A stretch of 24,203 nt of DNA, from positions 1 through 24,203 of the forward strand of contig JAYGFR010000011.1 in the NCBI GenBank assembly GCA_046581755.1, in the 5' to 3' direction. Below are positions 1 to 6,000 of the stretch, piece by piece (the stretch's first letter is position 1; every line of letters begins with the position of its first letter). The position numbers were made by a program. The DNA comes from Nitrospinota bacterium (GTDB taxonomy: Bacteria; UBA8248).

Positions 1-3000
1 TTTCGGGCAAAGTGGGTTTTTATTCCACGCAGACATTTCTGTGGATTATGAATCTTATTAGATATATTTTCCACAAAAATATGACGTATGTCCGGGGTTT
101 TCCACAGAAATCTGAATAATTTTGGAAGTAATTGATTTTTATTGTGAAAAACAATTCTTTCTCCGGATTGGAACTGAAGGCAAACTTTGTGGTAAAAGTG
201 ATCCCGCGGCATTGGATTTCGGGCGGCGGTTGAATTCTATAATTAAGAGCATTTCGTGGTTTTTTGCGAAGCGTCCGGGGCGCCCATTTGGGCCCATGAT
301 TTCTTGACAACCCCGACCCGCATGGCTATTGTTTGCACTGCTTTTTGGGGAATCCAGAGAAATAGAGCCGCATCATTCCCTTTTCGGGCAGAGCGCGGAG
401 AAACGGGACAGGAAAGTGAAGAGAACGTATCAGCCGAACCGGAACAAGCGGGCAAAATCACACGGGTTTCGACACCGAATGAAGACCAGCGGCGGCCGGG
501 CGATCATTAAGCGCCGGCGCGCCAAGGGGCGGAAAAAACTTTCGGTATAGGCGCTTGATGTATCGAGGCGCTTTCCCATCCAACCAGAGACGGGGGAGTG
601 AGCCAAAAATTCCAGCCGGACATGCGCATTCGGCGGGGTCCGGATTTTAAACGGATTTTAAGCAAGGGCGCGAAACGCCAATGTCGGCATTTTGTTTTAT
701 TTTTGTTGCAAGGCGTCGGCGATCAGGTTCGAATGGGCGTTATCGCTTCCCGTAAATTCGGAAATGCCGTTGAACGCAATCGCGCCAAAAGAATAATTCG
801 AGAAATATTTCGCCGAAATCGATGCAGGATGCCGGCAGGGGCGGAGGTGGTAGTTGTGGTTCGCCACCCGATGGTTGGCGCGGAGCAAAAAGAAATTGAA
901 AAGGCGTTTATGGATGCCCTTGAGCCAGGCCGGCGCTGAAGGGTTGCTTGCGATGGTCCGCAGTATCATTTCATTTGGCGCAACCGTATTGATCCGGGGC
1001 TACCAACTCCTGATTTCTCCTGTTATTCCGGGAAGTTGCAGGTTCCACCCGTCATGCTCCCAGTATGCCAAGGAGGCGTTCCGCCGCCATTCGCCCGGCC
1101 GGGCGCTTTGGCTCGCCGTTCGCCGGCTTGCCCGATGTCATCCCCTTCACCCGGGTGGAATAGATCCGGTTCCTTAACGGGCCGGACGGAGACGCAATGA
1201 ATGGATAAAAATGCAATTCTCGCCGCGGTTCTTTCGATTGGCGTTCTGGTCGCGTGGGATTATTTTTATATTCGGCCGATACAGAAAAAAAACGCCGCGA
1301 AAAGCCAGGCACGCGCGGAAAAAGAAAAGGCCGCGAAAGCCAAAATGCGCGCCGTGAATCCGCTTGTCCGCGCCGCCCCAGCGTCGCCCCAGCCGGCCAT
1401 GCCGGCCCAGAAAAAACCTGAAACAAAGGCGGTAAGGGAGGTCCGGGTCCGGGTGGATGTGGGTCCCGCCATTTATGAATTTACGAACCGGGGTGCGGCC
1501 ATGGTTTCGGCGCGCCTGAAAAAGTATCTGACCGACGACCTGAAAAGGCCGATTGACCTAATCTCGGAATTGTCCCCGGCGATGATGCCGCTCTATTTCA
1601 AGGGGGGGGATACCGCGGAGCTCCTGAACGGTGCGTCCTTTCAGGTCGAGGGCGGAGACATCACCCTCACCCCCTCCCGGCCCGAGGGCAGGCTCCGGTT
1701 TTTCTACCGCGATAAATCCGGCCTTTTTGCCGAGAAGATTTTGACTTTTCGCTACGACAGGTACGTTATCGGAATGGCTTTGCGGGTGGACCAGCCGAGG
1801 AGCCCGAAACCCATCGGCATCGCCTGGGGCCCCTCTGTGGGCGGCGCCGCCGGGAACGTCTATGGCGGCATCGTCGAGGGGCCGATGAGCTTCATCGACA
1901 AAAGCCTGGAATACGACACTCCCGAACTAGATAAGCCGACCGTCCATGCCAGCGGAACCCGGTGGACCGCCCTCCAGACGAAATATTTTGTTGCGGCCCT
2001 GATCCCCAGGGGTGGAAACGGGCGCTCGGAGATCCGGCGGCTGGGCGGGAAAGACAATAAAATAGACTACGCGGTCATCGGATTCATGCCGGAGGGGGCC
2101 AGAAGCGCGGCCGGATTCGATGTTTATGTAGGCCCGAAGGAAACCGGGAGACTCGCAAAGCTGAACGCGAGCCTCGAAGAGGCACTTGATTACGGAATAT
2201 TCTCTTTTATCGCCAAACCGCTGATGGCCGTGCTCCGGATCTCGAATGCGGTCCTGGGAAACTGGGGCCTGGCCATCATCCTTCTCACCGTTTTGATCAA
2301 GCTGGTTTTTTACCCCCTGACCCAGTACGGCATGCGCAACATGCGCAACATGCAAAAACTCCAGCCGAAGATGACGCAGCTCAAGGAAATCTACAAAGAC
2401 GACAAGAACAGGATGAACCAAGAGGTAATGGCGCTCTACAAGGAAAACAACGTCAATCCCATGATGGGCTGCCTCCCGATGATCGTTCAGATCCCGGTTT
2501 TCTTTGGCCTCTACAATGCCCTGTTGGTTTCGATCGAGCTTCGGCACGCGCCGTTCTTTTGGATTGCGGACCTTTCGGCGCGCGAGCCCCGGCTTTTTCC
2601 CATCCTCACTCTTCTCATGGGCGCTTCCATGTTCGTTCAACAGAAAATGACGCCCTCCGTGGCGGATCCGGCGCAGGCCAAGATGATGATGTTCATGCCC
2701 GTGATGTTCACGGGGATGTTCCTCTACTGGCCCGTTCCCGTGGGGCTGGTGATTTACTGGCTGATGAACAACATTCTTTCGGTCATTCAGCAATATTTCG
2801 TGAACAAATCCGTAACGCCGCCGAAGCTGGCGGAGGAAAATTGATTTGGAGTTTTCGTTTCGGGCGAGAGCCTTGGATGATTCGCCAAAAGACTTTGGGC
2901 AGTTTTACGAAGCAGCGGGAGGCGGCTTATGGCTATGAGATGGAACCCCCGTCGAGGCGGCGATGGCTTTTTCGGGCCGGAGGGATCGGCCGAGGAAGGG

Positions 3001-6000
3001 TTTTTGGATGATCGCGAATCCGCCGATTTTTCCGACCTGACTCTTATTTTCCGAATGCCGGACCGCTCGCTTCGCCGCGTCATCGAACGGATGGACATGG
3101 AAACCCTTTCGTTGGCCCTGCGGGACGCGGACCAGGGCATCGTGGACCGTGTCCTGAAAAATGTTTCCGTGCGCACGTCGGTTTCGCTCATGGCGGAAAC
3201 GGAAGCGGGCCACCTGGCCGGACCGGACGATACCGCGGAAGCGCGCGCGTATCTCGTCCGGATGATTTTATCCATGGAAAAAAGCGGAGAGGTGTCTCTG
3301 GATGGCCCGGAGGGGGATCCGGCGCCGCCGATCGATCCGGATCTAAAAAGAATGGCGGGAAGCTTCGCCCAGGAAGAGACCGGGCCGGAGCGGGCGGTCC
3401 GCATGATGATCGCTCTCGCGGCGCGCGCCCACGGCCACGGGCTTATTTCGCTGGAGCCCGTCCTGGAAAGCGTTCCGGAGGGGATCCTGGCCACGGGGAT
3501 TCGCGCCCTCGTGGATCAGATTCCCGTCGAGGAAATCGAGACCGTCATCGGCCGCCAGATCGATTCTTGTTTGTATGCATACGAGCGAAACAACGACATC
3601 GTCATGGAGGGCATCCTCTCCATCGCCGAGGGGTGGGGCGAGGATCGGACCCGCCAGAGGCTGGTTTCCTTTTTGCCGGAAGGGGAGGCGGATTTTCAAA
3701 AACTTCCCGAGATTCGCATGACCCCGTCGGTGCAGTCGGCGAACGATTTAATCCTGGCGTGTTGCCGGCTGGCGGAGCAGATTCGCAGGGAGGGATTCGA
3801 CGAACTGGAGGCCGAAATCCCCGAAGCCGGCGACCCCCTCCTCCGGCGCAGCCTGAAGTGGCTTTGCGACGGTTATCACATCGGCGAGGTCGAGAGAATG
3901 CTCACGCGGCGAACCAGGACGCGGGCCGACAGGGAGCGCCGCAAGCTGGAGATTTTGCTGGAGGGCCTGATCCTCATCCGGGAAGGAAGCGAATCCGCGC
4001 ATATCCAGGAATCGCTCGAGGGATTCCTGGAAGACGAGGCGTGAAATCCACGCCCCCCGAAAACACTGGGTCATTCCGCCGGGCCGGATGCGTCTTCTTG
4101 TCAGCCGGCGGCGCCACCGGATCATGCCTCCCACGAAAGCGCTCCGCGCGATGGGCCTCCGGCGGGGGATGGCGCTCTTGGACTTGGGGTGCGGCCCCGG
4201 ACCCTTTTCCCTGCCGGGTGGTCGGGAAATCCGGCAGGGTCCTGGCCAGCGACACCTCGCCGGCGATGCTGCGGGCGCTGCGGAAAAAATCCAAAGAAAT
4301 CGGCCTTAAAAACCTGCACCTGAAAAAATCGGCCGACCCGGAATTTCTCTTTCCGGACGGTTGCGCCGACATGGCGATGCTCGGGTTTGTTCTTCACGAA
4401 ACTGCCCGGACGGATCGGTTTCTGAGCGAAACGATGCGCACGCTCCGCCCCGGGGGCCGCGCCGTTATCCTGGAGCGGCCCCCGGTGCTCACGGAATACG
4501 GCCCGCCCCTCTGGGCGCGGCTGGACGCCGGGGAGACAAAGCGCATGGTCCGCAAGGCGGGCCTTGTGGTGGAGCGGTCCTGGAGCTTCGACGACGATAC
4601 CTATTTCGTCGTGGCGCGCCGCCCAAGCGGGAAAAAGGCGGCGGGCCCGTTTTCCGGTGCGGCCGAGGCAATCGAAAGGCGCGTTCCCGGAGGCAAAAAG
4701 GCATGAGCGAGAGATCTTCCATCCGGGGACAGGTGGCCATCGTCACCGGTGGCGCCGCCGGAATCGGCGAGGCGGTGGTGCGCCGGTTCGCCGAAGAGGG
4801 CGTCCGGATCGCGCTCGTGGACAAAGACCCCAACAACGGAAATTCGGTCGTGGAAAAAATTAAATTCGCCGGGGCGGACGCCATCTACCTCCAGGCGGAC
4901 GTGGGGTCTTCCGCCGACGTGAAGGAGGCCTTCCGCAAAACGGACGAGCGGTGGGGAAGGCTGGATATATTGGTGAATTGCGCCGGCGGGTTTTTCGAGA
5001 CGGTCCCGATCGAGGATCTCGAAGAAGACGACTGGGACGCCATTCTCGCCTGGAACCTGAAGAGTGTTTTTCTTTGCTCCAAGGCGGCGGCGGTCCCGAT
5101 GAAAAAGGCGGGCTATGGGCGCATCGTCAGCATCTCCTCCCTGACCGGCCGCACGGGAATTCTCGAAACCGCGCTCCATTACGGATCGGCGAAGGCGGGA
5201 ATCCTCGGATTTACCCGGCGGCTGGCCGTGGAGCTCGCCCCGCACGGAATCACCGCCAATGCCGTGGCGCCGGGCGTGGTGCTCTCCCCCCGCGTGGCGA
5301 TCATGCACAAGGACCGCCTGCCCGAGATCAACAAATCCATTCCCATGGCCCGCCCCGGCGAGGCCGAAGAGATCGCCGACGGCATCTGGTATCTCGCGAC
5401 GCCGGGATCGAGCTATATCACCGGCGTGACGCTCGACATCAACGGCGGCCGATGGATGGCGTAGAGAATTAAGGCGGGCGGGTAGGTTTCATTCCTTGGC
5501 ACTAAAAAGAAATTTCCCGCAGCGTCTCCGCGGCCCGTTCGGGCGCCATCTCGTTAATGTGCATCCCCGATCCGATCTCCAGCCCCGCGATGTCGGCGAG
5601 GCGGGGAAAAATCTCGATGCGCCACCGGTGGGCCGGCGTGTTTTCTCCGGGCTCCGGGCGCGTTTCGACATGAAAAAAGACGTTGAGCGGCGGATCGCCC
5701 AGGAGATTTTTGATTCGCCTCAAGGAGCGGGCGAGGGCGCCCCCCACGGCGGCGATCGCGCCGGGAGGCGATTCGGCGAAGCGCTCTTGTGTGGGCCAGG
5801 GCGAGATCGCCACCTGGAAGGGAAACCGCGACGCAAAGGGACAATAGGCCACCGCTCCCCGTTCGCCGGTTTCTATCGTCCTGCGGTTTTGTTTAGTCTC
5901 CCACTCAACCATTTCGTCCAGCAGGGTTTTGCCGGTGTCCCGGTGGAAGTGCTCGGCCGCCTCACGCTCGAGGGCGATATACGGGGGGATTGCGGGGAGC

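Follow-up and report, generated by a model that had tools for sequence, protein, structure and literature searches.

A soluble fusion of the FliG torque domain to two MotA-derived units, kept behind yidC in relatives in which no motor gene was found

Behind yidC in a Nitrospinota bacterium lies a gene (P0001; 2929..4044, plus strand) that runs from an ATG without internal stop for 371 codons and joins the C-terminal torque domain of the rotor protein FliG to two units derived from the stator protein MotA, in a single chain that has no membrane helix and is maintained by purifying selection in genomes that yielded no motor gene. The window in which it was analysed is a stretch of 24,203 nucleotides at the start of contig JAYGFR010000011.1. 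The survey's finding had described this domain composition and held that no natural protein joining the two halves of the torque interface in one chain, and working without a flagellum, had been described; no account of such a natural and soluble fusion turned up in the literature searched, which covered few subscription papers and no supplements. What is new is how the fusion is built and that it persists where no motor gene was found, a claim of which function forms no part. As to what the protein does, the reading that we put first, tentatively but at not far from an even chance, is that it is a cytoplasmic, ion-path-free version of the stator-rotor contact, with its FliG domain predicted to be clamped by the two MotA-derived units, M1 and M2, as a self-latched switch.

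The gene is preceded, 6 nt ahead of its ATG, by a ribosome-binding-site-like GGAGG (2918..2922, plus strand). Residues 1-32 of the product (2929..3024) are acidic, variable in the homolog alignment and predicted to be disordered (pLDDT<50), and are followed by the FliG C-terminal domain (residues 35-126, 3031..3306), the sole Pfam family matched at E<=0.01 (PF01706, residues 39-124, E 7.6e-13, 49.1 bits against a cut-off of 23.3). A conserved acidic, proline-containing linker with a short helix (residues 127-151, 3307..3381), in which P127, D130, P133 and P134 are invariant across 23 homologs, leads to M1 (residues 152-252, 3382..3684) and thence to M2 (residues 268-371, 3730..4041), every part being encoded on the plus strand. 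A profile of the 23 homologs searched against the PDB gave the same matches as the survey's, to FliG (1qc7, E 2.7e-12), MotA (8ucs/6ysf, E 2e-10, profile positions 137-205) and PomA (E 0.0035, positions 261-319), and it is on profile cross-hits that M1 and M2 are regarded as repeats, the two not being significantly similar by BLASTP alone (24% identity, E 19). RNA-library contigs, in which RNA and DNA carry-over are inseparable, cover parts of 2929-4044 at a depth of 2-3.6 in four runs from four studies, a coverage that we do not take as proof that the gene is expressed.

M1 matches residues 82-147 of Clostridium sporogenes MotA and then jumps to 220-252, and M2 matches residues 76-142 of Bacillus subtilis MotA; in each unit the cytoplasmic loop is directly joined to the tail that follows TM4, the TM3-TM4 hairpin having been deleted. 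The survey had equated these units with the torque-interface domain, which holds for the loop but leaves out the post-TM4 tail. No hydrophobic helix was found in the fusion, its maximum Kyte-Doolittle mean over 19 residues being 1.03. The survey had also reported that the predicted fold matched FliG and MotA only weakly, and so it does in Foldseek on the PDB (best E 0.011, no match at E<=0.001), but not in VIA-align, in which the ten best rows were all FliG or MotA/PomA (Z 11.8-15.4) and the next row fell to 7.7. FliG 1lkv gave Z 15.4 (rmsd 1.6, 91 residues aligned) and MotA 6ykm gave Z 14.4 (rmsd 5.6, 155 aligned), with residues 70-249 of the MotA chain running along residues 149-371 of the fusion; against the model of a one-unit relative MotA reached only Z 5.3-5.7. 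The fusion's model has pLDDT 83.2 and pTM 0.80, and that of the one-unit relative pTM 0.57 at pLDDT 93, the alignments behind the two models being shallow (23 and 22 sequences).

The fusion thus shares the cytoplasmic torque-interface helical bundle of MotA/PomA (PF01618, PF20560; 6ykm, 6ysf, 8ucs, 8bri), in sequence and predicted fold, and the FliG_C fold with its torque helix (PF01706; 1lkv, 1qc7, 8umd), yet it departs from both parents. MotA/PomA has four TM helices, of which TM3-TM4 line the ion path, and has its gene next to that of MotB, with which it assembles (5:2), whereas the fusion lacks all four helices (about 70 residues of TM3-TM4 having been excised), carries two units per chain with a predicted tail swap, has no motB beside it and reaches at best 57.5 bits against the NCBIfam MotA/PomA cut-off of 340. 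Compared with FliG, it is encoded outside flagellar operons, scores 31.4 bits on TIGR00207 (cut-off 226.7) and lacks FliG_N and FliG_M, just 38 residues preceding FliG_C, so that it would have no contact with FliF or FliM. The closest precedent for both halves in one chain is an engineered MotA-FliG_C fusion, used for structure 8UCS, in which FliG_C is seated between a pair of neighbouring MotA heads; that construct is laboratory-made and built on membrane-bound MotA5B2, whereas the present protein is natural, soluble and supplied with its own second head (PMC11302681).

The published pincer has one FliG_C between two MotA heads (PMC11302681) and uses R88/K89/R232 of one MotA subunit and E96/D114 of its neighbour (PMC10374538), and the stoichiometry of the fusion, one FliG_C to two heads, is the same. 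The MotA torque positions R90/E98 correspond to H168/E176 in M1 and R286/E294 in M2. In the 23 close homologs the acidic face of M1 is invariant at E176 and D196, as is R240/R242/R244 of its tail; M2 keeps a basic face, R286/R287, with Arg at the R287 position in 21/23, and a conserved basic stalk, R323-R351; the converse positions are looser, Arg at M1 R90 occurring in 6/23 and Glu at M2 E98 in 9/23. Since M1 keeps the acidic face and M2 the basic one, the conserved charges fit the published pincer. On the FliG side R82 is equivalent to R281 (R/K in 23/23), A89/E90 to D288/D289 and G98 to R297, i.e., R281 and D289 are retained, D288 is Ala and R297 is lost, the last being kept in just 19% of 169 units. 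The His at the M1 R90 position and the Ala at FliG D288 in this particular protein count against a clamp, as does the rarity of R297. Among 43 distant members with a FliG domain and two MotA units, E98 is present in 37 (M1) versus 20 (M2) and R90 in 31 versus 35, an asymmetry with a sign test of 22:6 (p=0.004) in which kin sequences were counted as independent, whereas distant single-unit members keep both faces (R90 57/63, E98 57/63). Over 227 MotA units R90 is kept in 74%, E98 in 75% and D114 in 79%; standalone units of the Desulfobulbales have E98 in 88/88, with Lys at the R90 position in just 21/88, a further point against the clamp.

In the self-latched switch as we picture it, the two units would swap tails along straight 34-residue helices, and two units would be needed to rebuild MotA heads because the tails are exchanged between them. 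The FliG domain is predicted to hold a fixed place relative to the MotA part, since pTM is 0.80 despite 35 residues under pLDDT 50, and this, together with the conservation, is the basis on which its docking between the acidic face of M1 and the basic face of M2 is predicted. The clamp may use the torque residues within one chain or between two, a head-to-tail dimer being at least as likely because a straight, tail-swapped dumbbell would hold the two faces far from each other. A partner would open the latch: in flagellated carriers a motor part, C-ring FliG or the stator, in which case the fusion would sense or buffer free motor parts. In the related genus g8 (below) this motor input would be gone, and M2 would use its basic stalk, which is conserved, to bind some other partner.

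The survey had proposed that the gene is kept in relatives without a flagellum, and this was borne out on the relatives analysed here. In the genus g8 the fusion is present in 16/18 genomes, the other two being without an assembled locus, whereas FlhA, MotA and full FliG were found in 0/18, and a search of three closed g8 genomes returned no flagellin, FliM, MotB plug or CheW. The dN/dS of the fusion across 16 g8 genomes is 0.14 (120 pairs, median dS 0.5), close to the 0.11 of yidC, with values of 0.16, 0.13 and 0.11 for its three domains, and the frame is open in all 23 loci. The gene is also present in each of the six family genomes that have FlhA and in which the locus is assembled, and it has been cleanly lost from an intact yidC block in 5/5 checked FlhA-less relatives (G001, G003, G004, G010, G007). 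M2 R286, the equivalent of MotA R90, is kept in 6/6 FlhA-bearing carriers and 0/16 g8 genomes, g8 having lost R90 in both units; this loss is a single evolutionary event, a second lineage without R90 being G006, which was left out of the count of non-flagellated carriers on account of its flagellin, MotA, MotB plug and CheW. The survey's 'non-motility job' is too narrow a description, given these patterns and the FlhA of most distant carriers (below). Other flagellar leftovers in family genomes include an orphan fliG and a broken motA; a FliG fragment in G014 was not counted as an orphan FliG, since it lies on a 5.3-kb contig and bears the motif of the Latescibacterota-type proteins.

The position behind yidC, also claimed by the survey, holds in 22/23 loci, 18 directly and 4 with about 1.15 kb between, while in the remaining one the contig begins inside the fusion gene. 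In the window, yidC (1201..2844, plus strand; PF02096, PF14849) follows rpmH, rnpA and yidD, and downstream come a SAM-dependent methyltransferase (4041..4706, plus strand), whose likely GTG start overlaps the TGA of the fusion, and a short-chain dehydrogenase (4703..5464, plus strand), whose ATG overlaps the methyltransferase stop and which is found downstream in 23/23 loci. Terminator and promoter scans between yidC and the fusion gene gave nothing above chance; a sigma-70-like consensus match (10/12) upstream of rpmH (304..332, plus strand), from a scan with 5 sites against 2.0 expected by chance, could, on sequence, drive the whole run. Such a setting suggests a different explanation, i.e., a static exapted scaffold or chaperone, a rigid helical body that the old torque contact holds together and whose conserved basic surfaces would bind a partner with a housekeeping role, be it YidC substrates, RNA or the membrane. 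It would account for a gene that in G024 starts 7 bases after yidC, for g8 selection close to that on yidC and for R240/R242/R244 and R323-R351, kept in 22-23/23 loci and not in the wider family. Jag_N often comes after yidC, and its being found in 0/5 genomes searched points the same way, but G010 and G038, which have no fusion, lack it too, for which reason a replacement of Jag/EloR was rejected. That the fusion is cleanly absent from an intact block in five relatives means that YidC does not need it; moreover, a thioredoxin/DsbA-like gene intervenes in G012, three more loci have an equally large gap, and distant members share no common neighbour (the largest neighbour cluster covers 18/80 flanked loci). 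We consider the scaffold unlikely, albeit the better placed of the alternatives.

The self-latched switch also has to be set beside the wider family, membership of which the survey had proposed. Both FliG and MotA modules are present in 125/140 distant matches, in architectures of M, G-M, M-G, G-M-M and up to M5-G2, and, as to the membrane status that the survey had left unchecked, almost all are soluble by hydropathy, 134/140 having no hydrophobic window above 1.7. The deletion junction is the same across several phyla, at 19-22 residues in 223/225 units. Outputs are fused to some members, with AraC HTH (3), sigma-70/ECF (2), TPR (3) and LRR (3) domains among 75 scanned proteins and three further sigma fusions beyond these, and the AraC and ECF-sigma fusions lend some support to the survey's putative 'adaptor or switch' role; the protein studied here has no output domain of its own. 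Around G062 a class-wide sample of 220 genomes held at least one full-length carrier besides the centre and 36 weaker matches, too few carriers for a comparison with flagella, and an ESM Atlas feature search returned mostly Spirochaetota clusters without names (0.91-0.93). A quick tree of the FliG domain (83 columns) supports the query clade at 100, on a long branch, and resolves little else, being as compatible with a single origin as with multiple ones. The survey's word 'unnamed' fits the query, which has no match to NCBIfam NF047717 ('LIC10244 family PerRA/PerRB upregulated protein', Leptospira) at E<=0.01, nor did G000 or G024 give one, but not the reverse-order branch, with one MotA unit against G-M-M here, of which 32/37 M-G members match that model at E<=0.001 (best 3.4e-32; positions 8-247 of 252 in P0054), all below its 475-bit cut-off. 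Judged from the family model and not from LIC10244 itself, NF047717 probably represents a divergent offshoot of this superfamily; its name derives from expression only, a single table row giving LIC10244 as 'Hypothetical protein', cytoplasmic, 6.61-fold (PMC8638967).

The distant carriers, with FlhA in 38/40 and full FliG in 37/40, raise the case of a flagellar brake or clutch acting in trans, whose MotA heads would grip C-ring FliG, or whose FliG domain would plug the stator cleft, so that torque falls, with non-flagellated carriers keeping a side activity. YcgR, MotI and EpsE are cytoplasmic brakes or clutches that act where MotA meets FliG, as flagellated fusion members might also do, although their folds are unrelated, whereas the fusion is built from the parts of the contact itself, persists without a motor and has no Pfam match to PilZ or another known effector domain. 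FapA, of ferredoxin-like, beta-sandwich and beta-solenoid folds, masks the same stator surface and is reported to act as a clutch in Borrelia (10.64898/2026.10.14.759253). A brake is favoured by the presence of the fusion in those six FlhA-bearing genomes, by R286 tracking flagella and by a metagenome locus (L210) in which fliM, a fliG fusion and fliN directly follow a G-M gene. It is harder to reconcile with g8, where selection maintains each of the three domains in 16 genomes with no motor gene found, and with a gene sitting apart from flagellar genes; a chain with both halves would tend to self-saturate, and flagella are not enriched in Desulfobulbales carriers (FlhA in 13/14, against 91/111 genomes as the baseline of the order). 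We rate the brake as improbable. The last alternative, that a motA-fliG duplication was shuffled and left a relic without function that drifts beside an essential operon, would suit the five or more losses, the long branch and the flagellar leftovers, but this reading, which the survey had left standing, is largely refuted by the g8 dN/dS and retention, the open frames and the recurrent deletion junction, and is very improbable.

The contact between MotA and FliG has been known for one task alone, the conversion of ion flow into torque. That it has a second use is shown by a natural family in which both faces persist although membrane and MotB are absent and, in one genus, no motor gene at all was found. 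A broader proposal, possible though doubtful, is that the torque contact became a stand-alone signalling superfamily of self-latching proteins, freely combining membrane-free MotA heads with FliG tips and opened by motor or C-ring-like partners, with AraC or ECF-sigma outputs in some lineages, which here outlived the flagellum by taking a new partner on the basic stalk. With small soluble proteins of this kind rotor-stator affinity and pincer geometry could be measured directly, whereas the solved complex was obtained with an engineered fusion (PMC11302681), and the fusions with transcription regulators would couple the status of motor parts to gene expression.

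The fusion gene (2929-4044, +) is an intact ORF of 371 aa downstream of yidC (1201-2844), and it is followed by a methyltransferase gene and then an SDR gene, each start overlapping the preceding stop. An overlapping 379-aa ORF in another frame (window 3567-4706) is likely an over-extension, and the methyltransferase probably starts at GTG 4041; one RNA-library contig omits 4444-4619, inside that ORF. A D12-class adenine methyltransferase gene (PF02086, window 15699-16538) lies downstream of parB, among small metabolic genes. FliG_C, at residues 39-124, was the sole family matched in a Pfam scan of the fusion. 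Its close homologs are 44-58% identical to the query, two of them carrying source names in Nitrospinota, and a profile of the query plus 22 of its 23 close matches (near-identical P0002 was excluded) was used in profile searches, which reproduced the PDB matches to FliG, MotA and PomA behind the survey's finding of a rotor-stator fusion. Hydropathy likewise bore out the absence of a membrane helix.

When residues 152-371, which hold the two MotA-derived units M1 and M2, were searched alone, they matched C. sporogenes MotA at 82-147 and then 220-252 with the query alignment continuous, and B. subtilis MotA also gave two pieces (76-142 and 219-249), the tail pieces being weak as matches on their own. 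From this continuous two-piece alignment, each unit is, at the level of sequence, the MotA cytoplasmic loop fused to the post-TM4 tail, with the TM3-TM4 hairpin removed. The link between loop and tail is 19-22 residues long in 223/225 units across the family, and M1 and M2 share just 24% identity, yet their profiles match each other.

How widespread such proteins are was gauged with a profile search of 1.84 billion proteins, which returned 2,994 at E<=0.001, a set in which ordinary FliG and MotA proteins will be numerous. The figures for the wider family come from the best 150 of the 2,994, or 140 after removal of close-clade rows, two fragments and four membrane-bound fusions. Both modules, FliG_C (G) and MotA-derived (M), were present in 125 of these 140 (three had M only and 12 G only), in arrangements of M-G (40), G-M-M (38), G-M (23) and others up to M5-G2; a hydrophobic window above 1.7 was absent in 134, and the named members included Treponema, Spirochaetales and Latescibacterota. 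Extra domains in 75 proteins scanned were AraC HTH (3), sigma-70/ECF (2), TPR (3), LRR (3) and ABM (1). Wukongibacter is among the carriers of an AraC-M-G protein. A peptide resembling the CheY-binding motif of FliM occurs in 6/204 M-bearing proteins, against 0.46 in shuffles, and is absent from the query. Six G-M proteins (P0061, P0077, P0109, P0117, P0126, P0154) have a conserved N-terminal extension of ~80 residues (residues 1-85), for which no convincing Pfam match was found in four of the six, scanned at a loose threshold.

A junction-motif search of species genomes gave 118 loci: 88 were standalone TM-less units, mostly from Desulfobulbales, of which some on short loci may be truncated, and the rest were 20 M-G, 7 true MotA and 3 unresolved. 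Forty of these genomes were checked, and 37 have full FliG and 38 FlhA; FlhA was not enriched among Desulfobulbales carriers above the order's baseline (13/14 vs 91/111 genomes). The standalone membrane-free MotA head, of 127-135 aa (L128:3746-4126 and 87 similar loci), is 72-91% identical within part of Desulfobulbales, occurs in 14/111 sampled genomes of the order and matched no Pfam family above cut-off; Desulfopila and Desulfobulbus are among its cultured carriers. At the metagenome locus L210, one run (3680-9972) holds genes for a SpoIIE phosphatase, a G-M protein, FliM, a fusion of an FGE-sulfatase domain with FliG, FliN and a small MotA/ExbB-like protein, the G-M gene lying directly upstream of fliM; other flagellar genes were not recognised within 10.6 kb, and the run is possibly a stand-alone switch kit. 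Natural membrane-bound MotA-FliG_C fusions also exist (proteins P0138, P0160, P0161, P0171; loci L231:4713-6104, L240:1498-2958, L243:569-1864), sharing their design with the construct engineered for structure 8UCS. Their TM3-TM4 sequences appear drifted, their flanks showed no recognisable motB-like ORF, and they are possible intermediates toward the soluble family.

The model of the fusion (pLDDT 83.2, pTM 0.80; residues 1-32 disordered) has unbroken helices at 200-233 and 318-351. In a comparison with 48,161 chains the ten best were all FliG or MotA/PomA, e.g., FliG 1lkv (Z 15.4, rmsd 1.6, 91 aligned) and MotA 6ykm (Z 14.4, rmsd 5.6, 155 aligned; residues 149-371 of the model over 70-249 of the chain), with rank 11 at Z 7.7. 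The model of P0049, a one-unit relative (pLDDT 93.3, pTM 0.57), has the same straight helix and matched MotA at only Z 5.3-5.7, over chain 70-209. From this weak match and low pTM, set against the two-unit model, we infer that closing a MotA head takes more than a single unit of this type, and predict that M1 and M2 exchange tails and that one-unit members would dimerise. The link in reverse-order (M-G) proteins is 21 residues long, with Gly or Pro in 34/40 vs 5/23 in G-M, and the reverse-order unit may fold back on itself.

At the native interface, the E. coli torque pairs are R90 with D288-D289 and E98 with R281 (PMC12505986), two adjacent MotA heads hold FliG_C between them in the solved complex (PMC11302681), and in PomA the plus face of one subunit comprises R88, K89 and R232 and the minus face of the next E96 and D114 (PMC10374538). 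Among 23 close homologs of the fusion, the M1 minus face (E176, D196) and the M1 tail R240/R242/R244 are invariant and M2 R287 is kept in 21; drift is seen at the M1 R90 position (R in 6) and at the M2 E98 position (E in 9). Distant members with one unit (n=63) kept both the R90 and E98 faces (57 and 57), and those of G..MM type (n=43) kept E98 in 37 for M1 vs 20 for M2, and R90 in 35 for M2, slightly above 31 for M1. A sign test of this asymmetry gave 22:6 (p=0.004, related sequences being counted as independent). Such asymmetry is the pattern expected if one FliG domain were clamped by the M1 minus face and the M2 plus face, the predicted docking; in a straight swapped dumbbell these faces would lie at opposite ends, so it may be two chains that together form the clamp.

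Our preferred reading, held tentatively and at a little short of an even chance, is that the fusion is a self-latched, unpowered rotor-stator clamp with the role of a switch. Domain identity, the hairpin deletion, solubility, purifying selection and the charge asymmetry are demonstrated; tail exchange and docking are predictions, and switching and partners are inferences. Competition for the clamp faces would come from motor parts in those carriers that have a flagellum. In g8, a related genus of 18 genomes, the latch would be retained and the input altered, perhaps to a putative partner of the M2 basic stalk, whose residues R323-R351 are conserved in 22-23/23 loci. M2 R286 is R in 6/6 FlhA-bearing carriers and 0/16 g8 genomes (genome loci), a difference that is a single event on the tree.

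The fusion occurs in 22/36 family genomes (in one split across two contigs) and in 0/24 more distant ones, and FlhA in 7/36 plus the window's genome; six of these eight FlhA-bearing genomes have the fusion, the remaining two being without an assembled yidC end. That it is retained in relatives without a flagellum, as had been claimed, held in g8: it is present in 16/18 (both misses are also without the assembled locus) as the only FliG_C match, with FlhA and MotA found in 0/18 each, and flagellin, FliM, MotB plug and CheW not found in three closed genomes. Selection there is purifying, the median dN/dS being 0.14 (0.06-0.30; 120 pairs, 16 genomes) vs 0.11 for yidC, and 0.16, 0.13 and 0.11 for G, M1 and M2, respectively. 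G006, a fusion carrier without FlhA, was left out of the non-flagellated count because flagellin, MotA, MotB plug and CheW remain.

A static scaffold or YidC-linked chaperone is unlikely, if deserving of some weight; in G001, G003, G004, G010 and G007, the five fusion-less genomes examined for it and all without FlhA, the block after yidC is intact with no trace of the fusion gene, and this clean absence speaks against an essential role. A flagellar brake acting in trans, for which FapA is the comparison case (10.64898/2026.10.14.759253), seems marginally less probable again. A functionless relic, set beside the purifying selection in g8, is highly improbable.

In the window's genome, the motB-adjacent motA (contig C240, L002:1240-1896, -) is frameshifted near its 3' end, through assembly error or decay, leaving a 218-aa ORF with the tail out of frame; a second motA, on C303, is apparently whole, fliG is seen just as fragments at contig ends, and CheW was not found. 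Full-length orphan fliG genes lie amid non-flagellar genes in two genomes without FlhA, G010 (closed; L035:8029-9090) and G004 (L036:3158-4186), and at metagenome loci L226, L228 and L233 as well. G010 retains a flagellin-like gene, MotB plug and a broken motA, FliM not being found. Upstream of motA-motB in G059, likewise without FlhA, lies the gene for a FliF_C-like/FliG_M/FliG_C/TPR protein of 650 aa (L042:345-7846).

The named entry closest to the fusion is NCBIfam NF047717 (LIC10244 family), which matches 32/37 reverse-order relatives and gave no match to the query. In print, LIC10244 turned up a single time, listed in an expression table (PMC8638967) as hypothetical and cytoplasmic, and a literature search, with subscription papers and supplements outside its scope, brought up no account of a soluble FliG-MotA fusion occurring in nature. 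The fusion is without the membrane helices and MotB that define MotA and without the N and M domains that define FliG, and is built on the contact surfaces of both. Its architecture is surprising and well-supported, and carries with it a testable structural hypothesis and a putative function.
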